DNA of 64,000 nt from Candidatus Nomurabacteria bacterium (GCA_020632095.1 JACKGF010000001.1:733366-797365), one strand, 5' to 3'. Positions 4,934 to 55,443 are shown, numbered from the stretch's first letter. Numbers and translations: made by a program. The notes: generated by a model not told the origin, from the sequence alone.

Positions 4934-6226
4934 ATGAATTCATTAAATTTTCTTTTTATTTCTTTTTCAGGTCTCCATGTTGATTTAGCTTGGCATGTTC
5001 AAAAAGAAGGTCACGCGGTTAAGTACTATATTAGAGACAAGTCTGATCTGACTGTCGGTGATGGATTTGTTAATAAAGTAACTGACTGGAAAGCAGAGGT
5101 TGACTGGGCAGACATCATTATATTTGACGATGTTCTTGGTCAGGGTGAAATGGCTGAAAAATTGCGCAAACAAGGAAAATTAGTTGTAGGAGGCACTAGA
5201 TACACCGACAAACTTGAGGACGATCGTTCGTTTGGACAAGATGAATTAAAAAAACTCAAAGTAGGAATTTTACCCTACAAAGAGTTTACAGACTTTGATA
5301 CAGCTATCACTTATGTAAAAGAACATCCTGATGAATACGTAATCAAACCAAGTGGTGAAGCACAAAATATCAAACGGCTACTATTCGTTGGGGTGGAAGA
5401 AGACGGTTCTGATGTGTTAAGAATGCTTGAAGCGTACAAAAAAGTCTGGAGTAAGGTTATTAAAGTTTTTCAGTTACAAAAGAAAGTGAACGGCGTTGAA
5501 GTGGGGATAGGCGCCTTTTTCAACGGTAAAAAGTTTGTTGAGCCAATTAACATTAATTTTGAACACAAGAAACTATTTCCTGGTAACGTCGGTCCAGCAA
5601 CCGGAGAGATGGGCACGAGTATGTTTTGGAGTGCACCTAATAAACTCTTTGCAAAGACGTTAAAAAAAATGGAGTCCAAACTAGCCGAGGAAGGATTTGT
5701 TGGCTACATTGATATCAACACCATTGTAAATGGTAATGGGTTATATCCGCTCGAGTTCACTTCCCGCTTTGGATATCCTACTATCCAAATACAAACTGAC
5801 AGCATGACAACCCCAGTCGGTGAATTTTTGTATAACTTAGCTTCCGGTCACGACAATCCATTCAAAGTACGTAAAGGATTTTCAGTTGGAGTACGAATGG
5901 TTGCTCCTCCCTATCCGTATGGTGACCAAAAGATTTTTGACTCTCACTCAAAAGATGCGGTCATCGTATTCAAAAAACCTGGCAAAGAAGGTATCCATAT
6001 CCATGATGTTCGTGATGTGAATGGAGTTTGGTCACTTACTGGAAAATCTGGCTTGGCGTTAGTGGTGGTTGGACAGGGGCTAACAATGCAACAAGCCAAA
6101 CAACAAGCCTACCGTCGGATTCAAAATATTTTAATTCCTAATGTTTATTATCGGAGTGATATTTCAGACCGTTGGGCAGAAGACAGCGACAAATTACACA
6201 GCTGGGGTTACCTACACGAGTTATAG
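4934..6226 (+). CDS. PurD-like ATP-grasp enzyme (phosphoribosylamine--glycine ligase family)
   Basis: N-terminus SGLHVDLAWHVQKEG resembles PurD GGREHALAW. HKKLFPGNVGPATGEMGT resembles the PurD GPNTGGMG loop. C-terminal EFTSRFGYP resembles EFNCRFGDPE. Confidence 0.55.
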   Translation: MNSLNFLFISFSGLHVDLAWHVQKEGHAVKYYIRDKSDLTVGDGFVNKVTDWKAEVDWADIIIFDDVLGQGEMAEKLRKQGKLVVGGTRYTDKLEDDRSFGQDELKKLKVGILPYKEFTDFDTAITYVKEHPDEYVIKPSGEAQNIKRLLFVGVEEDGSDVLRMLEAYKKVWSKVIKVFQLQKKVNGVEVGIGAFFNGKKFVEPININFEHKKLFPGNVGPATGEMGTSMFWSAPNKLFAKTLKKMESKLAEEGFVGYIDINTIVNGNGLYPLEFTSRFGYPTIQIQTDSMTTPVGEFLYNLASGHDNPFKVRKGFSVGVRMVAPPYPYGDQKIFDSHSKDAVIVFKKPGKEGIHIHDVRDVNGVWSLTGKSGLALVVVGQGLTMQQAKQQAYRRIQNILIPNVYYRSDISDRWAEDSDKLHSWGYLHEL

Positions 6227-6433
6227 TGAAGTAATTCCCTAAAGTGAAGACAAGGAATCATTATTTTCTCCATGCCCCTTTCTATCTTAATTTTGAAAGT
6301 GTAATTAATAATGATGAAGGTAGTCAATTTAAATGGTTTTAATTATCTGAAAGACCAGACAACATGACCTTCCCTGTTCACTATCGACTAAATCAAGAAA
6401 CAGCAACAAAGAAACTTTTATCTTAAAGACACC

Positions 6434-7237
6434 TTACTTATGAGCCTTTGAGGAAAACCAGAGACCGTCAAAAAGAGCTTGCATGGTGTCTTTATGTTCT
6501 TGAGAAACCATTAATATACAGTAACTATTTTTAACTGATGAAATATATAGGGTTTTATCATCAAACAAAAAAATAGTAGTCTTGAATTTATCTCTCATAA
6601 TCTTGGGCAGTACTCGTACCTCAGAAGAGTCATCATAATATTTTTTTAGCAACTTACTATCAACAGAATCATCCCAGAGATTTTTGGCTTGGATGTTTCT
6701 CTTAATCCGTTCGTTGATAAACTTAAGTGCAAATTCCTCCCCGACTTGCCAGAAAAAGTTATCTTTTGGAGCGATAGAATACAACTTCTTACTGCGACAA
6801 TACAGAGATTCCATCGCCACCCTACGCACCGCCTCTTTACCCTCAAAAAAAGAAACGGTTGGTTTTTCTAAACCGGAAATAGTTTGTGCTTGTAGTGCTG
6901 GAATTAATTCCAGTATCTCATCTTTTAAATGCGTAGCTTGAGTTTCTTTTTCTTCCGCAATTACTGACAACTGCTCAATGGAGTTGAGAGCAAAACCTAC
7001 CCCTTCACTACCAGTTCGACTGACCAAACCACGCTTTTCCAAGCTCCCCAACGCATAATAAACCGTTGGTCTTTTAATCTCTGTAACTTTCACTAAGTCA
7101 CGTGCTGAGACCGCACCAGCCACCATAGCCAAGTACACTGTCACCTCAGAATCACTGAGTCCAAGCTTTAAAAGATGATGTTTATATTCATTCATATTTA
7201 ACCAAGTTGTATAATCGTTATTATACACGATTGACAC
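6434..7237 (-). CDS. TrmB-family HTH transcriptional regulator
   Basis: N-terminal LGLSDSEVTVYLAMVAGAVSARDLVKVTEIKRPTVYYALGSLEKRGLV is a winged HTH typical of TrmB. A C-terminal effector domain follows. Confidence 0.55.
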   Translation of the reverse strand: MSIVYNNDYTTWLNMNEYKHHLLKLGLSDSEVTVYLAMVAGAVSARDLVKVTEIKRPTVYYALGSLEKRGLVSRTGSEGVGFALNSIEQLSVIAEEKETQATHLKDEILELIPALQAQTISGLEKPTVSFFEGKEAVRRVAMESLYCRSKKLYSIAPKDNFFWQVGEEFALKFINERIKRNIQAKNLWDDSVDSKLLKKYYDDSSEVRVLPKIMRDKFKTTIFLFDDKTLYISSVKNSYCILMVSQEHKDTMQALFDGLWFSSKAHK

Positions 7238-7292
7238 TTTACTTCAATTCACCTATTCTCATGGGAGATAGCTCATTGAAAGGAGAAAAATC

Positions 7293-7886
7293 ATGCAAGT
7301 TATCGGCTTGACTGGAAATATCGGTTGCGGGAAAAGTACGGTCTCTTCCCTACTCTCACGACTTCCCCAAGTACTTGTAGTTGATTCTGATAGTTTAGCT
7401 AAAACTATTCTGTCTGATCAGCGCCATAAAAATTCATTGCAGAAAATTCTTGGTGAAGAGGTTTTTGAATCAGATACAATTAATTTTAAACGAGTAGCTC
7501 AGATTATTTTCCACAACAAACTAACCCGCGTGAAACTTGAAAAATTCATTCACCCTTTGGTTTGGACCAGCATAGACAAAATAGTTAAAGAAACACCAAG
7601 CAACACCTTAGTCATAGTTGAGTCCGCCATCATCTATGAAACCAAAATGGAATCATATTTTGGTGGAATAATTGTGGTCACTTGCCCAACAGATGTGCAA
7701 TTTTCCAGACTCACTACATTTAGAGGAATGAGTTCTGAGCAAATAAAAGCTCGTCTTAGTCAGCAGATTAGTTCAGCTGAAAAAGTCGTTCGAGCTAATT
7801 ATGTAATCGATACCGACTGCACACTAGATGAACTCAAACAACGTGTCTTCAATCTATATAAACAAATCAAAGGAGGACAATCATGA
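7293..7886 (+). CDS. coaE: Dephospho-CoA kinase
   Basis: MQVIGLTGNIGCGKSTVSSLL P-loop and overall CoaE pattern. Its TGA stop overlaps the coaD ATG (ATGA). Confidence 0.8.
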   Translation: MQVIGLTGNIGCGKSTVSSLLSRLPQVLVVDSDSLAKTILSDQRHKNSLQKILGEEVFESDTINFKRVAQIIFHNKLTRVKLEKFIHPLVWTSIDKIVKETPSNTLVIVESAIIYETKMESYFGGIIVVTCPTDVQFSRLTTFRGMSSEQIKARLSQQISSAEKVVRANYVIDTDCTLDELKQRVFNLYKQIKGGQS

Positions 7887-47906: not shown

Positions 47907-47927
47907 TTTTTTATGGGCTTAAATAAA

Positions 47928-47960
47928 ATACCAACACTAGGATAAGTGTTGGTATTTTTA
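47928..47960. terminator. Bidirectional terminator between yidC and the secretion-cluster genes
   Basis: ataccaacact-aggataa-gtgttggtat followed by tttt. Confidence 0.6.
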
Positions 47961-47974
47961 AATAAAACTTAGGG

Positions 47975-48754
47975 TTACTTATATTTGGTGCAGGAGACAA
48001 TCCCGTTGTACTCACGAGCCTCTGCTTCTCCTCCAGCTCTTTGACAAGCTTTCATAGCGGCAGTACAGTCGTATGTATTATTTCCAACAGGGTCAGTTCC
48101 TGTAAGGAGACAATCGAATGTACTCGGTCGTTTTTTAGCTGCTCGTACAATACAGGTGCCTAGTTGATCGCTGCCGGGTGGTGGTGGAGTATATTCTCCT
48201 TGATAACAAGCTGCTTCAGGATTTGGTGAAAATGGGTTGTAGTTAGAAGGGCATCTGCCAGGCACAACATTTTCACAAATATTTTTTGCTTCTGCCGCAT
48301 CTCTAATAATACCGGATCTCAAAGGCATAAATTCATCTCCTAAGGGTAGCGAAACAGGGCTACTGGTAGTTATAACACGTGGCGAGCTTGGTATTGGGAT
48401 CGGGTCAAAGGTTACGTTAACATTATTTATGTCTGGATTGATGACAGTTATTATGATTACAGCCGCTAGGATTACCAATAACCCTAGTACAGCACCTTGA
48501 ATATCTTTCTTAGCAGACCCTTTGTCGGTAACAACATCAGACATCATCCACTTAACTCCAGCAATTACTATTTTAATTACCGCCAGGAGAGCCGCAATAC
48601 TGATTGAGAGAGCGTACAGAGCGTTCATATACGCGTCAAATCCCGAGTTAGGATTTACCCCAGGGATACCCACCAAAGGAGTATAACCAGCAGCAAAAAT
48701 TAAGGAAGGGGCGGCTGCTAGAATAAAAACGATTATTGTAATGATTTTTTTCAT
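47975..48754 (-). CDS. VirB2/TrbC-like pilin with a C-terminal cysteine-rich extension
   Basis: Signal peptide MKKIITIIVFILAAAPSLIFA, then two hydrophobic helices separated by a short charged loop (ALYALSISIAALLAVIKIVIAGVKWMM / SDVVTDKGSAKKDIQG / AVLGLLVILAAVIIITVI), the TrbC/VirB2 fold. Then ~120 aa with 10 Cys and PPPP. Confidence 0.45.
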   Translation of the reverse strand: MKKIITIIVFILAAAPSLIFAAGYTPLVGIPGVNPNSGFDAYMNALYALSISIAALLAVIKIVIAGVKWMMSDVVTDKGSAKKDIQGAVLGLLVILAAVIIITVINPDINNVNVTFDPIPIPSSPRVITTSSPVSLPLGDEFMPLRSGIIRDAAEAKNICENVVPGRCPSNYNPFSPNPEAACYQGEYTPPPPGSDQLGTCIVRAAKKRPSTFDCLLTGTDPVGNNTYDCTAAMKACQRAGGEAEAREYNGIVSCTKYK

Positions 48755-48764
48755 GATAATTAAG

Positions 48765-49973
48765 TTACTCAGTTTCTGGTAAAGGTTGTAATCGCTCAAA
48801 CATCCAGAGGTTTTGGTTGTTTTTGTTTACAAAGTAAATATTTACATCATCGTGACCAAACTGTAGGTTGGTTATGTCCAAAGACTGCCCACTTTCTGAT
48901 TGGGTGTTTGACAAGGAAGAAACCCCTTGTTCAGTCATTTTCGATTCCCAGAGGTTATCAGATAAATTAACCTCACCACTATACCAAGTGTCCGGAGTTT
49001 CTCTGTTGTAGGTGTTTGGTGTTTCAGCACATACCACTAGAGAAGAAGTGTTTTCACTAAAGGCACATTTTTCAGGAATAACAGTAATAGGAAATTCAAC
49101 GTAATCATTATATTCATGAAGGTAGAGATATGTTTGGTATCTTTCCTTGTCTTGTCTACTAAACACGACCCCGCTCTCATTTCCTTCAGCGGAAAGACCA
49201 AAACCATCAATTGGCAGACGACTAACCTTTCCTCCTTTTATCTCATATAAAAACCCTTCTAGTTTACTGCTAGCTTTCGGGTAGGCGAAGTGAGTATCCT
49301 TTTCTGTTTTTCCCCAGTCAATCACTGCTTCACGGAAAGGGATTGTAAATAAGTCTTTAGAGGTTTGTTTTACTGGGTCAAATGACTTACCGATAACCGA
49401 TCGGTCAGTTTTAACAGCATACAAAAAAGTGTTGTCAGTAGTAGCTTTAAAGCTGATAATTGGTTCAGTTATAGTGTAGACACTAGAGTCGCTTGAAGAG
49501 GCCGAGTCAAGTTTTTTGATGTTGTATTCACTACTAAAACCGCTACCGGACTGAATCATTACGTATTCACCATCTAAAGTAATGCTACCTTTTTGGCTGC
49601 TTGGGAAGGTGGTAGCTGATACTCTCTCTTCTTCCCCACTAGTTAGGTTAATAGAAAAAACGTGTCCCGTACCAGCTTCGATATAGTAGACAACAGGGGT
49701 GGAAGAAGCGTTTTTCATTACTTCACGGTAACCAATAATTGGTTTGGTAGTGAGTTGACGAAGTCTTTTAGAGGTAGAAACATTCACTGTTGGTTCATTG
49801 TCTAATGTAGGTTCTTCATTAATGATTGATGTGTCAGTAGTGTCGCCAATTGATAGGTCACCAAAAACCTCGTCAACATTCTTAGGTGTGCCAAAAAATA
49901 AAACCCATATCCAGATAGCGACTAGGATAATTATTAGTACTACTCCAATGACGATAAATACTGTGCGTTTCAT
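48765..49973 (-). CDS. Hypothetical membrane-anchored secreted protein (putative secretion-system component)
   Basis: N-terminal TM (VFIVIGVVLIIILVAIWIWVLF). Ser/Thr-rich, predicted beta-rich ectodomain. Confidence 0.35.
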   Translation of the reverse strand: MKRTVFIVIGVVLIIILVAIWIWVLFFGTPKNVDEVFGDLSIGDTTDTSIINEEPTLDNEPTVNVSTSKRLRQLTTKPIIGYREVMKNASSTPVVYYIEAGTGHVFSINLTSGEEERVSATTFPSSQKGSITLDGEYVMIQSGSGFSSEYNIKKLDSASSSDSSVYTITEPIISFKATTDNTFLYAVKTDRSVIGKSFDPVKQTSKDLFTIPFREAVIDWGKTEKDTHFAYPKASSKLEGFLYEIKGGKVSRLPIDGFGLSAEGNESGVVFSRQDKERYQTYLYLHEYNDYVEFPITVIPEKCAFSENTSSLVVCAETPNTYNRETPDTWYSGEVNLSDNLWESKMTEQGVSSLSNTQSESGQSLDITNLQFGHDDVNIYFVNKNNQNLWMFERLQPLPETE

Positions 49974-51981: not shown

Positions 51982-53784
51982 CTACATCCGTGAAGCTTGT
52001 AACTCTTCTCGGGCTTTTCTGATTTGGAGAATTTGTGATGGGTCGGAAGTGATGATTTGTTCTTCAGTATAAGAAGCGATTATTTTTATTGCGACGTGTT
52101 TAAGGCCGGCAAAAAATATACCCTCTCCTACATTGGATTCAAGTAGCAAAAACTTTTCTTCATCAGTTAAATTAAAGGTTTTTTGGATGTTGTCGATAGC
52201 TGTTGGAGATTGTTTCATTAAGAGCTGAATTGATGAGTTGGTAATCATTGGTACTCCGTAAGGTGAACGAAGGAAATCGTCCACGTCTTGAGTGATGGTG
52301 GCTATACCTAGGTAATACTTTCGTCCTCGTTTTGCTAGACTAAACAAGAAAGAGGCGGTGTCTTCAGATTTCATCATCCACCAAGCTTCATCAATCACCA
52401 TTAAGCGCTTAACCATTCTTCGTCTGATTGATCCCCAGATGAAGTTAGTGATGATATACATGGCGATAGTTTTGAGCTCATCTTCCATGTCACGTAGGGA
52501 GAAAACCACGAATTTTTGATTAATGTCGACATTAGTGGCATGGTTCATGAAACCAGACCAGGTTCCAGCGGTGTATTTTTGGAGTCTAGTTATAAGTGAA
52601 GAACTACCATCCATACCAGCTAACACCATTTCAAAGTCAGTAAGTAATGGTGGTTCTAGGTTAGAGAAATTTGCATCACCGGTGATGTCTTTTAAAGCGT
52701 AGGTTTCTTGGATAGCAATATCAATCAAAGTTTCTTCTTCAGCAGTTAGGCCACCCAGCATTAGTCTGAATAAACCTACCAACTCAATAATGTGGGTACG
52801 GAGGACATCGCGGGGGTCCTCATCAGCGCTTGGTGTGGGAAGGTCAAAAGGATTTATGTGGTGATTAGACGATAAAGAAATGTTGAAAAAACGTCCACCA
52901 GTGGCTTCGGCTAAGTATTCATATTCTCGCTCTGGGTCGATTACAATCACTTCAGTACCAAACATTAAAGAGCGTAGAATCTCAAGTTTTAAGCCAAATG
53001 ACTTCCCTGCTCCAGAGGTGGCAAAGGTAACGGAGTTGTAATTTGTTAGACTGTAGCGGTCGAATAGTACTAGTGAAGAATTGTGTCGATTGACACCATA
53101 AAGAATTCCTGAATCCGAGGTTAAGTCGAAAGAAGTGAAAGGAAAAAAGCTTGAGAGGGGTTCAGAGTTGAACTTGCTGTGAACCATGAGTTCATCATTA
53201 GATAGCGGTAAAATACTTTTGAAGCCTGGTTCTTGTTGAAATAAGGCTGGCTTCATTGCTACTAAACGGGCATCAAGAATTCCACGAATATCATTTTCAA
53301 CCTGGTTAATTTCAGTGTCGGTTTCTCCATAGATGGTTAGGTAGAATCCTACATCAAATAACTTTTCCTCGGCTTGTTGTAGTTTGTCGCGCAGATCTTC
53401 AAGGTTTCGGTAAGCGGCTTCAAGTTGTGGGTCGCGCACCTCCCCTTTTTCCGCTTTGATATTAATTTGGCTTTGCACCTCAGCGACTTTTTTTTGAAAT
53501 TTCTTTAAAGTTTCAGCCGTGTCAACGGGATGGATAAAAATTGATACGTCAAGTTCTTTAGCTAGGTTTAAAACCGGCTCCAGCCAACCGTCGTTCAGGT
53601 ATCTTGGGTAAGAAACAGCATAATAAACTCTAGCATTTACTCCGCTAACATTAATACTTCTAGGACTCACATTAATAGCTGATGGTGCAATCACATCAGT
53701 TAAAGTGAGGAGTTGATCTTTAATCACATTAGAAGGGTCTTCACCTTGGTTTTTCTTGGGTTGTAGTAAATCTGCTAGTGACAT
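51982..53784 (-). CDS. virB4: VirB4/TrbE/CagE-family type IV secretion ATPase, C-terminal ATPase part
   Basis: Walker A TSGAGKSF, Walker B MVIDEAWWMM (DEAW), and GIATITQDVDDF (ATQ motif). Confidence 0.75.
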   Translation of the reverse strand: MSLADLLQPKKNQGEDPSNVIKDQLLTLTDVIAPSAINVSPRSINVSGVNARVYYAVSYPRYLNDGWLEPVLNLAKELDVSIFIHPVDTAETLKKFQKKVAEVQSQINIKAEKGEVRDPQLEAAYRNLEDLRDKLQQAEEKLFDVGFYLTIYGETDTEINQVENDIRGILDARLVAMKPALFQQEPGFKSILPLSNDELMVHSKFNSEPLSSFFPFTSFDLTSDSGILYGVNRHNSSLVLFDRYSLTNYNSVTFATSGAGKSFGLKLEILRSLMFGTEVIVIDPEREYEYLAEATGGRFFNISLSSNHHINPFDLPTPSADEDPRDVLRTHIIELVGLFRLMLGGLTAEEETLIDIAIQETYALKDITGDANFSNLEPPLLTDFEMVLAGMDGSSSLITRLQKYTAGTWSGFMNHATNVDINQKFVVFSLRDMEDELKTIAMYIITNFIWGSIRRRMVKRLMVIDEAWWMMKSEDTASFLFSLAKRGRKYYLGIATITQDVDDFLRSPYGVPMITNSSIQLLMKQSPTAIDNIQKTFNLTDEEKFLLLESNVGEGIFFAGLKHVAIKIIASYTEEQIITSDPSQILQIRKAREELQASRM

Positions 53785-53793
53785 AACTATTTA

Positions 53794-54435
53794 TTATCTA
53801 TTATCAACTATTGGAGCGCTCCCAGTCATATCGGCTGGATTATATAAGTGGTAAAACAGTTCGACCAAATCATCTTTTCCTAAAGAGATAGTTCTTACTC
53901 CTATCCGGGCTAATCCTTCTGATACCATGTCAACTCTTTGTTCAAGCTGAATCCGGTGTTCCTCGAACTGGAGATCATTTTGTGAAGATGATTGTTTTTG
54001 GGATTGAGAAAACATACTGGTGATTCCGCGAGTAATATTTAGTTTGGTTGGAGAGTAAGGAACAACTATAAAAAAGTTTTTACTCATAACATCAACATCT
54101 CTAGTGAATGAGCTGATAAATTCCATGTATTCCCGAAGTTGAATACGCATTAAATCATTATCTTGTTTTACCTCGAGACTTTGGAGAAGTTCTAAATAGG
54201 GTTCAATATTTAATTTTCTAGATTGAATATAGATTTGTAAAGAAAAATCTATAGTATTAAGAAATTGCTGAAATTGCATCAAAATTGCTTTTTGCTCATC
54301 TAATGATTTTAAAGCAAAGTTAATTGAAGAAGCCAAAAGCAACATACACATTTGACCGTTCTTTTGGATTATGACATCGTCACGAATATCTTTAATAGAG
54401 ACGAAATCTTGAGTGGCAGCTTGAGCTTTTGGCAT
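53794..54435 (-). CDS. virB4: VirB4 N-terminal domain encoded as a separate ORF
   Basis: VSIKDIRDDVIIQKNGQMCMLL...EQKAILMQFQQFLNTIDFSLQIYIQSRKLN matches the N-terminal domain pattern of Gram-positive-type VirB4 (PrgJ/TcpF-like). Same frame as the downstream ATPase ORF, separated by TAA TAA. Confidence 0.55.
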   Translation of the reverse strand: MPKAQAATQDFVSIKDIRDDVIIQKNGQMCMLLLASSINFALKSLDEQKAILMQFQQFLNTIDFSLQIYIQSRKLNIEPYLELLQSLEVKQDNDLMRIQLREYMEFISSFTRDVDVMSKNFFIVVPYSPTKLNITRGITSMFSQSQKQSSSQNDLQFEEHRIQLEQRVDMVSEGLARIGVRTISLGKDDLVELFYHLYNPADMTGSAPIVDNR

Positions 54436-54436
54436 A

Positions 54437-54865
54437 TTATTCCTTTTTTTGTAAGGCTTGTAATTCTAGTTTTTTAGCTAGTGAAGCGATGTTATTTTTA
54501 GGTCGTGCTGGATTTATTAAAGAGGGGTCAGTGCCTGTACGGGTTGAATTTGGTTGACTTGGGGCTGAGGTTTTGTAGACAGTATCAGTTTTTTGACGCC
54601 ATAAGTACAGCCTTTGACCTCTTATATAGTTGTAGATAGCTTCTAGAAAAAAAGAAAAAGGTCGGTTGTTGACTGGGTAAAATGCCAGAGCCCCTGCCAG
54701 TAGAGCTAGCGGAATACCTAGAAAAATAAAAAGAAACAGGGGTAGCGTAAAAAACATTACGACGGCCATACCAACTCCCCCTCCAAGATAAAGGAACTGA
54801 CGCCAAGTAAGAGGGCCAAAAATTTTATCTTCGATATCTATGAATTGAGGAACTTCAAAACGCAT
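54437..54865 (-). CDS. PrgI/VirB3-like small membrane protein
   Basis: FEVPQFIDIEDKIFGPLTWRQFLYLGGG then two TM helices. Located immediately upstream of VirB4, as PrgI is. Confidence 0.5.
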   Translation of the reverse strand: MRFEVPQFIDIEDKIFGPLTWRQFLYLGGGVGMAVVMFFTLPLFLFIFLGIPLALLAGALAFYPVNNRPFSFFLEAIYNYIRGQRLYLWRQKTDTVYKTSAPSQPNSTRTGTDPSLINPARPKNNIASLAKKLELQALQKKE

Positions 54866-54918: not shown

Positions 54919-55443
54919 TTACTGACCCCAACTCGGGGCTGAGGCTTCTGGTTTAGTTCGTCCTTCATTTAAGATAGCTGATTGGGTTGAGGTGTAGGTA
55001 GGGATGTGGCTTTGAGCCTGTTGCAGTTCCACATCATTAGCCATAGTGCGAACATGGGGGATGTTCGGCAGATTAGAAAGTGAAGCCTCTGCTTCAGCTA
55101 TATCTAAAGCCATGGCGGCATCCTCAGAGGAATTATATATTTCTGCTTGAGTGGTTAGTATCTCCAGCGCATTATTTATTTCTGTCGAAACCACGGTAGA
55201 TATTTCTGTAGATAGTCCCAAGTTTTGACTGAGAATTGAAGGGAGTTCGACTGGTTTTGACAAATCTAAGATCATATCACCAACTACGAGAATAAATTTG
55301 TTGTAGTTAGTATCATCAGTCAAGTTGTACTTTTCAGCAATTTTCCACAGGGCTTCCCCACTCTCAGGGGAAGCGTACAAAAATTTATTAGTTTCAGAAG
55401 CAACTTCGTAAGCAGCGTTGCGTTGTTGATTAGTGATAGACAT
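54919..55443 (-). CDS. Hypothetical soluble protein within the secretion cluster
   Basis: 174 aa, no TM, no recognisable motifs. Confidence 0.3.
   Translation of the reverse strand: MSITNQQRNAAYEVASETNKFLYASPESGEALWKIAEKYNLTDDTNYNKFILVVGDMILDLSKPVELPSILSQNLGLSTEISTVVSTEINNALEILTTQAEIYNSSEDAAMALDIAEAEASLSNLPNIPHVRTMANDVELQQAQSHIPTYTSTQSAILNEGRTKPEASAPSWGQ

Follow-up and report, generated by a model that had tools for sequence, protein, structure and literature searches.

A stretch of 64,000 nucleotides from Candidatus Nomurabacteria bacterium (GCA_020632095.1 JACKGF010000001.1:733366-797365; hereafter the window) encodes on its minus strand a protein of 259 amino acids in which a VirB2-type pilin is fused, via a linker, to a cysteine-rich C-terminal domain (C-domain; Table 1). 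This protein is very probably the pilin of a type IV secretion system (T4SS) that carries an exported, disulfide-bonded and variable ectodomain. Between close genomes, the outer domain has been replaced or has diverged past recognition, while the pilin core is strongly conserved, and a long C-terminal domain is typical of the pilins in this clade of Patescibacteria. According to the wider reading, the gene product is the only VirB2-like pilin of an origin-proximal T4SS-like system in a Paceibacteria-type Patescibacterium (labelled Nomurabacteria/Kaiserbacteria), and the ectodomain is displayed for host contact. With the whole chain taken together, this is the reading that we lean towards. The last link on its own, i.e., that the C-domain mediates host contact or specificity, is put forward tentatively.

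Pilin and Ectodomain in a Single Gene

The open reading frame (ORF) had originally been predicted at positions 47,975 to 48,754 and was found there, on the minus strand, as a complete coding sequence. The motifs quoted from it at the time (CENVVPGRCPSNYNPF, ACYQGEYTPPPPGSDQLGTC, DCLLTG, YDCTAAMKACQ and VSCTKYK) are all present. An identical protein is deposited as H6784_03810 (hypothetical protein, Candidatus Nomurabacteria bacterium, 997-kb contig), and the same 259 amino acids recur on four contigs from independent sources. The ATG at position 48,754 can be taken as the real start of the pilin because it lies 10 nt past the stop codon of the preceding gene and because the homologues begin at the aligned MK... 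position. An alternative TTG start at 48,799 would overlap with the upstream gene and finds no support among the homologues. The original prediction had named a real start further downstream as a threat to the fusion; inspection of the start points to the ATG at 48,754 instead.

The proposed fusion of a pilin with a cysteine-rich domain proved genuine. Both parts are kept together as a single ORF in more than 100 independent homologues, and the in-frame methionine at residue 143 is not conserved among 17 full-length homologues (38–52% identical overall) that were aligned end to end. The same layout within an unbroken ORF was found in 119 of the best 120 homologues, on which the census below is based, and in 40 of the 41 complete pilins that occupy a conserved slot in species-representative loci.

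Family Assignment of the Pilin Core

The profile PF18895 (T4SS_pilin) aligns with residues 42 to 105 of the query over profile positions 8 to 71 of 71 (E = 6e-5, 23.4 bits) and matches 15 of the 17 full-length orthologues (E < 0.01; best E = 2.8e-7). Precomputed PF18895 matches are also attached to several homologues, and PF04956 (TrbC/VirB2) matches weakly in five of the 17 orthologues. The profile check that was proposed along with the original prediction thus finds support at the level of the family, but the query itself scores just under the PF18895 cut-off. At the sequence level, no match with a solved pilin was found when PDB was searched with the query profile.

Hydropathy and the AlphaFold2 (AF2) model both display the architecture of a VirB2 protein, namely a signal peptide and two hydrophobic helices (approximately residues 44–68 and 86–106 by hydropathy; residues 39–74 and 78–105 in AF2) with a short, positively charged loop. 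Cleavage of the signal peptide is predicted ahead of a conserved YxPLVGIPG motif, which reads YTPLVGIPG in the query. The two helices are joined by a lysine-rich loop (KGSAKKD, approximately residues 75–85), and a conserved INP motif closes the core. The genomic context is likewise that of a VirB2 protein, with VirB4, VirB3-like and VirB6-like components encoded alongside. The N-terminal 110 residues are therefore treated here as a VirB2-family pilin core, with profile evidence at the family level. All elements of the pilin architecture that had been described initially (signal peptide, two helices, charged loop) were recovered, but the pilin part is shorter than the 130 residues then assigned to it, as the core ends around residue 110.

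Two other classes of pilins were considered and rejected. A type IV pilin would carry the class III signal peptide motif G/FxxxE, which is absent from the N-terminus (MKKIITIIVFILAAAPSLIFAAG/YTPL), and the query has two helices rather than one. A sortase-assembled Gram-positive pilin does not fit the C-terminus (...NGIVSCTKYK), which has neither an LPXTG motif nor a hydrophobic tail.

The Cysteine-Rich C-Domain

Residues 140 to 259 form a hydrophilic region with eight cysteines (positions 160, 168, 183, 201, 215, 230, 237 and 255), and not ten as first counted. A number of eight cysteines in 96 residues corresponds to an 18-fold higher density than the 0.46% of the remaining 52 ORFs of the window (binomial P ~3e-8). 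Among the 17 full-length homologues, seven of the eight are invariant, with a conservation of at least 90% for the other one. Other conserved motifs in the domain are GD at its start, CEN, CY.G.Y and YDC..A...C. The coding sequences of the window are generally poor in cysteine (82 in 17,721 residues, 0.46%), and many of the T4SS proteins contain none. No obvious thioredoxin-like CxxC oxidoreductase is encoded in the window, so a disulfide-forming enzyme, if any, would have to be encoded elsewhere. MdbA-like oxidoreductases and VKOR are enriched in bacteria of the Candidate Phyla Radiation (CPR) (PMC6744442).

The full-length AF2 model consists of a helical hairpin, a disordered linker and a well-predicted C-domain. 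Over residues 113–130 of the linker, the predicted local distance difference test score (pLDDT) falls below 50, and the linker also varies in length among homologues. A Foldseek search with the full-length model returned generic helical hairpins only, and the C-domain was therefore re-modelled and searched alone. The isolated domain reached a pLDDT of 90.5 and a predicted template modelling score (pTM) of 0.72, with a predicted alpha/beta fold of about eight strands and three to four short helices. Searched with Foldseek, it has no fold match in PDB (best E = 0.52, template modelling score ≤ 0.25) or in BFVD (best E = 1.1). A sequence search of PDB with the C-domain yielded nothing at E ≤ 10, and neither Pfam nor NCBIfam has a match on residues 110–259 in any of the 17 orthologues. 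As modelled, the domain has a fold without a counterpart in PDB and BFVD, the two structure sets searched, and this fold is possibly undescribed. The resemblance to a disulfide-knotted adhesin that was noted originally finds no backing in Pfam, PDB or Foldseek.

An exhaustive search of 1.84 billion representative proteins with the C-domain profile gave 27 matches. Nearly all of these are pilins of 250–300 amino acids that carry the domain at their C-terminus. Two proteins (P0122 and P0125) have two tandem copies of the 8-Cys module after the pilin core, and the locus L018 encodes a 477-amino-acid pilin with 16 cysteines (5920..7353). Judged from these cases, the ectodomain appears to be modular and open to duplication. 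In a protein of 806 amino acids (P0121), the 8-Cys domain is located at residues 691–805, behind an unrelated beta-propeller dehydrogenase/HEAT-repeat-like region that is typical of other phyla. This entry may be an exceptional case in which the domain was reused in a protein other than a pilin or, alternatively, a chimeric metagenome contig.

Hypervariability of the Ectodomain across the Clade

In the census of the best 120 homologues, 119 proteins extend past helix 2 by at least 45 residues, with a maximum of 316, and 118 have an even number of cysteines (2 to 18) after helix 2. Cysteines make up 4.5% of the extensions versus 0.15% of the pilin cores. Even cysteine counts that are largely confined to the extensions read as a signature of extracytoplasmic disulfide-bonded domains. 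The fusion, which had been called unusual, is indeed so when compared to classical VirB2/TraA pilins, but within this clade it is the norm. When the extensions are clustered with BLAST after trimming of the helix-2 end, they fall into 29 clusters. A first clustering that had suggested a single large extension family (103 out of 120) was discarded as an artefact of the conserved PNLxxVxL motif that ends helix 2. The 8-Cys profile matches 27 of the 120 homologues and a 6-Cys profile 46, and no homologue is matched by both. No significant similarity exists between the two profiles (hhalign probability 3%). Even within the 8-Cys subgroup, the mean pairwise identity is 70% for the pilin core (residues 24–110) compared to 20% for the linker (residues 111–139) and 29% for the C-domain (residues 140–259). 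The latter value is 23.5% when the eight cysteine columns are left out.

When one genome was taken per GTDB species, 47 loci were obtained. The pilin occupies the same slot in 44 of these, in the order VirB4 ... 402-amino-acid gene, pilin, convergent yidC-rnpA-rpmH and then dnaA. The neighbours in these 44 loci are well conserved relative to the window (81–96% identity for DnaA, 78–89% for VirB4 and 60–79% for YidC). The pilin core is present in all 47 loci with a median identity of 64% to that of the window, whereas the C-domain of the window is detectable by BLAST in two. Pilin length in the conserved slot ranges from 122 to 477 amino acids (40 complete proteins), with extensions of 14 to 361 amino acids and 0 to 18 cysteines. 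For the two closest relatives examined, the identity to the window drops from 95% (DnaA) and 86–89% (VirB4) to 68% for the pilin core; for the C-domain, one relative shows 32% identity and the other no detectable counterpart. A neighbour-joining tree of DnaA, YidC and VirB4 shows the types of C-domain interleaved with one another. As this tree has no support values, the interleaving is only suggestive of cassette replacement or of very uneven divergence. At the lower end of the length range, a Parcubacteria genome (L007, 5998..6366) encodes in the same slot, at about 100 bp from yidC, a pilin of 122 amino acids without a C-domain and without cysteines, which looks like a natural domain-less variant.

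Relation to Known Pilins and Secretion Systems

The T4SS type and its VirB2-like pilins are already known. The T4SSs of Patescibacteria comprise VirB4 of the mating-pair formation (MPF)-FATA-like type, TrsD, PrgI, VirB6 and VirB2-like pilins, usually without a relaxase (Quinonero-Coronel et al. 2025, PMC12102498), and often adjoin dnaA, dnaN, rnpA, ksgA and rpmH (PMC12102498). The pilins described therein belong to the same core profile family as the one analyzed here and share its system components and its origin-proximal position. They are, however, described as small proteins, with tandem arrays of 2–11 divergent short pilins in Saccharimonadia and Microgenomatia (PMC12102498). Here, in contrast, each locus has one pilin gene, and the variability is located in a cysteine-rich ectodomain at the C-terminus, 45 to more than 300 amino acids long. 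In the papers searched on T4SSs and pilins of Patescibacteria, we found no description of a VirB2-type pilin with a large, disulfide-rich and hypervariable ectodomain that is typical of a whole major clade and is encoded by one gene per locus. A structural-clustering preprint, in which appended domains were not analyzed, reports that PF18895 dominates the freshwater-specific structure clusters, and this dominance fits the presence of many distinct appended domains.

Classical VirB2/TraA/TrbC pilins (PF04956) have in common with the query a signal peptide, a helix-loop-helix arrangement and a positive loop. Yet, they end soon after helix 2 without a globular domain, and they function in diderm systems together with VirB5 and VirB7–10. 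Monoderm MPF-FATA systems are said in the literature to lack VirB2. The pilin-like family of Mycoplasma integrative and conjugative elements (ICEs; NF045849, Mbov_0395 family) is likewise of the monoderm MPF-FATA type. Its model has 80 positions and no C-terminal domain, and it matches the hairpin weakly in 16 of the 17 orthologues (best E = 4.7e-6), with all scores below the cut-off (at most ~25 bits versus 40). Because of these 16 weak matches, the Patescibacteria pilin may have come with Mollicutes-like ICE machinery and not from a diderm system. Type IV pilins provide an analogy only. They too combine a conserved hydrophobic N-terminal polymerisation module with a variable, disulfide-stabilised and exposed head, as proposed here, but they are unrelated in sequence and topology and belong to a PilB/PilC system, whereas the pilin of the window occurs with VirB4. 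The filament reported in a 2026 ‘Pam pilus’ preprint is a different, chaperone-usher-like CPR filament that is not relevant to this pilin. The pilin is a candidate for the job that PrgB-type adhesins do in Gram-positive conjugation systems, i.e., establishing cell–cell contact for a monoderm T4SS. There is no homology, and these adhesins are separate, large and wall-anchored proteins; the pilin lacks LPXTG. No adhesin of the PrgB type was detected in the T4SS loci of Patescibacteria (PMC12102498).

Proposed Role and Alternative Explanations

In the mechanism that we propose, the signal peptide would be removed before YTPLVGIPG and the two-helix hairpin would insert in the membrane. The lysine-rich loop would stay in the cytoplasm (positive-inside rule), which would place the C-terminus outside. 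The 120-residue domain, stabilised by four disulfides, would then be tethered outside the cell by a flexible Pro/Ser linker some 30 residues long. Should the hairpins polymerise as in F and T pili, with both termini outward, one C-domain would be displayed per subunit, resulting in a densely coated filament. Both pilin termini face outward in the solved T-pilus. The F-pilus has an outer radius of ~43 Å and five subunits per 12 Å rise. A rough estimate from these figures gives ~27,000 Å3 per subunit in a 31-Å shell versus ~16,000 Å3 for a 13-kDa domain, a ratio at which a dense coat of domains would be geometrically possible.

A role in host contact is favoured because no part of the apparatus would be more exposed or evolve faster than the ectodomain, because a related class cannot do without this apparatus in its epibiotic lifestyle, and because no separate adhesin was detected for these systems. 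Epibiotic growth of Southlakia epibionticum, the one species tested, requires the T4SS genes and those for its pilins (Wang et al. 2023, PMC10633639); the function of the T4SS in Patescibacteria is an open question in the literature (PMC10633639, PMC11665869, PMC12857230). More speculatively still, every filament subunit of the T4SS in Paceibacteria-type Patescibacteria may be a pilin–adhesin fusion, in which a hypervariable cassette, exchanged or replaced among close relatives at a fixed locus, sets the host that can be engaged. The ectodomain cassette would then fill the role of the pilin arrays in Saccharibacteria and of the PrgB-type adhesins in Firmicutes. The surface-exposed, target-binding part considered originally is plausible and in keeping with the topology, the even cysteine counts and the extreme variability. 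A tip-only location, along the lines of the tip domain suggested originally, has nothing in its support, since the locus contains a single pilin gene; neither paralogous pilins nor further copies of the C-domain were found in the 64-kb window. Patescibacteria account for a considerable part of bacterial diversity, and for the most part they are attached to other microorganisms; host recognition is largely a gap in our understanding of them. A fixed-slot pilin with a conserved core and an exposed, hypervariable and disulfide-stabilised domain is a testable candidate for a determinant of host specificity. If confirmed, this pilus would be the first of the VirB2 type in which every subunit bears a globular domain, whose fold is possibly undescribed.

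Several points weigh against a filament that displays its ectodomain for host contact. The PF18895 score of the query (23.4 bits) lies below the Pfam gathering cut-off of 26.6 bits, and no likeness to a described cysteine-rich adhesin, knottin-like, lectin or receptor-binding fold was found in Pfam, NCBIfam, PDB or BFVD. A 13-kDa domain on each subunit is without precedent in VirB2 pili and might hinder packing. A T4SS pilus of Patescibacteria has not been seen so far, nor has a filament been shown with such a pilin. The domain-less pilin of L007 implies that the C-domain is not needed for the core function of the pilin. Finally, fast evolution alone is no proof of binding, as evasion of phages or host defences fits too.

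One possibility is that the protein is a membrane-anchored surface protein, with the VirB2-like hairpin remaining in the membrane or crossing the thin wall only as a short stalk or channel. Wall polymers, the S-layer, other parts of the T4SS or a nearby host could then be bound by the cysteine-rich domain at the cell surface. We judge this fairly improbable, though not negligible. As a rule, monoderm MPF-FATA systems are devoid of pili (PMC12102498; PMC10633639), no T4SS pilus of Patescibacteria has been imaged (the thin filaments of one Saccharibacterium are unrelated Pam pili), and a globular domain of 120–360 amino acids on each subunit would be new among VirB2 filaments. Nonetheless, the hairpin core is ~64–70% identical, as expected of a packed polymer interface and not of a simple anchor, and the long flexible linker suggests a domain that is held off a packed core. 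Pilus formation by these systems is moreover a serious possibility according to reviews (PMC12857230). The variable domain might also act mainly as a shield, i.e., an antigenically or receptor-variable coat under which the conserved core escapes phages, host defences or predators, which would suit the extreme divergence and the interleaving of domain types among close relatives. VirB2-type pili are well known as targets of specific phages, but we know of no phage of a Patescibacteria pilus. In Bartonella and Anaplasma, differences between VirB2 paralogues have been read as immune evasion (PMC12102498). We consider shielding unlikely as the main function; it is in any case compatible with binding, as both roles often coincide in surface proteins.

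Alternatively, the C-domain could be cut off during maturation, either as a discarded pro-region or as a released soluble factor, leaving a short and classical mature pilin. TrbC of RP4, which undergoes C-terminal processing, offers a parallel. Trimming of the C-terminus of VirB2-family propilins has a precedent in the cyclisation and processing attributed to Eisenbrandt 1999 by a paper citing that work, and the short natural pilin of L007 occupies the same slot. On the other hand, the region between helix 2 and the domain has no conserved cleavage motif (the linker is 20% identical and of variable length), and no TraF-type peptidase was detected among the proteins of the cluster. A disposable pro-region would hardly keep a confident fold, invariant cysteines and even cysteine counts across more than 100 variants, and we rate this explanation a shade lower again than shielding. 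An artefactual fusion, caused by a wrong start, a frameshift or an assembly join, with the cysteine-rich part as a separate protein, has nothing in its favour except the in-frame methionine at residue 143. The conservation of the fused ORF excludes it for practical purposes. It is equally at odds with the identical protein on four independent contigs and with the lack of conservation of Met143, and a separate product would have eight conserved cysteines but no signal peptide.

Genomic Context

The pilin gene is the last gene of a T4SS cluster on the minus strand (Table 1). On its other side lie yidC, rnpA, dnaA, dnaN, a class A penicillin-binding protein gene and tyrS, and the far end of the cluster is flanked by the genes for KsgA and a UvrD-type helicase. 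Towards the pilin, the cluster encodes successively proteins of 467, 765 and 174 amino acids, PrgI, and proteins of 213, 600, 310, 331 and 402 amino acids. This gene order is kept in L001, L002 and 44 of the 47 species loci. With VirB4, TrsD, PrgI and a VirB6-like protein next to dnaA, dnaN, rnpA and ksgA, and no relaxase or coupling protein detected, the locus is, as judged from its gene content, of the origin-proximal Patescibacteria T4SS type of Quinonero-Coronel et al. 2025 (PMC12102498). Family searches gave no match to a relaxase or type IV coupling protein among the cluster ORFs, and no VirB5 or VirB7–10 components were detected at the locus.

Table 1. Features of the pilin gene, its protein product and the surrounding T4SS cluster (positions in the window).
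Feature	Position	Strand	Evidence or remark
Complete coding sequence, pilin plus C-terminal ectodomain, 259 aa plus stop	47975..48754	-	ATG at 48754, stop 47975-47977
Signal peptide (predicted), aa 1-23, MKKIITIIVFILAAAPSLIFAAG	48686..48754	-	Hydropathy; aligned A-x-G/A-x-A sites in homologues; read from sequence
VirB2-type pilin core, aa 24-110	48425..48685	-	PF18895 match, AF2 helices, orthologue identity
Pro/Ser/Thr-rich linker, aa 111-139	48338..48424	-	Poorly conserved, predicted disordered
C-terminal alpha/beta domain (predicted), 8 Cys, aa 140-259	47978..48337	-	AF2, Cys conservation
VirB6/TrbL-like polytopic membrane protein, 765 aa, 8 transmembrane helices	55459..57756	-	Transmembrane prediction; orthologues with PF19590 TrbL_3
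174-aa protein	54919..55443	-	
PrgI (VirB3-like)	54437..54865	-	PF12666, E = 1.4e-11
TrsD/TraC-like piece, 213 aa	53794..54435	-	NF045975, NF041427 and PF26593 matches for the two-ORF VirB4
VirB4-type ATPase, 600 aa	51982..53784	-	PF19044, PF12846
310-aa protein, Ser/Thr/Pro-rich N-terminus, 3 C-terminal transmembrane helices	51035..51967	-	
402-aa membrane-anchored protein, one N-terminal transmembrane helix	48765..49973	-	Directly upstream of the pilin gene
14-bp perfect hairpin plus U-rich tract	47925..47958	-	dG -18.2 kcal/mol, z = -5.9

The hairpin downstream of the pilin gene is probably a bidirectional intrinsic terminator that serves both the T4SS operon and the convergent yidC; a consensus terminator scan did not flag it. 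The G+C content of the window is 40.6%. The VirB4 function is split over two ORFs (51982..54435), as is also the case in L001 and L002, and the best NCBIfam match of the 213-amino-acid TrsD-like ORF is the N-terminal part of a Mycoplasma ICE VirB4 (Mbov_0397). The proteins of 310 and 174 amino acids evolve almost as fast as the C-domain, with 30–43% identity where VirB4 is 86–89% identical. The 402-amino-acid protein is 26–54% identical across relatives and has a weak DUF6454 match but no other family match. It may work as a partner of the pilin, be it as a chaperone, at the tip or in assembly. Its gene directly precedes that of the pilin wherever the upstream flank was recovered, with a 4-nt overlap in many relatives.

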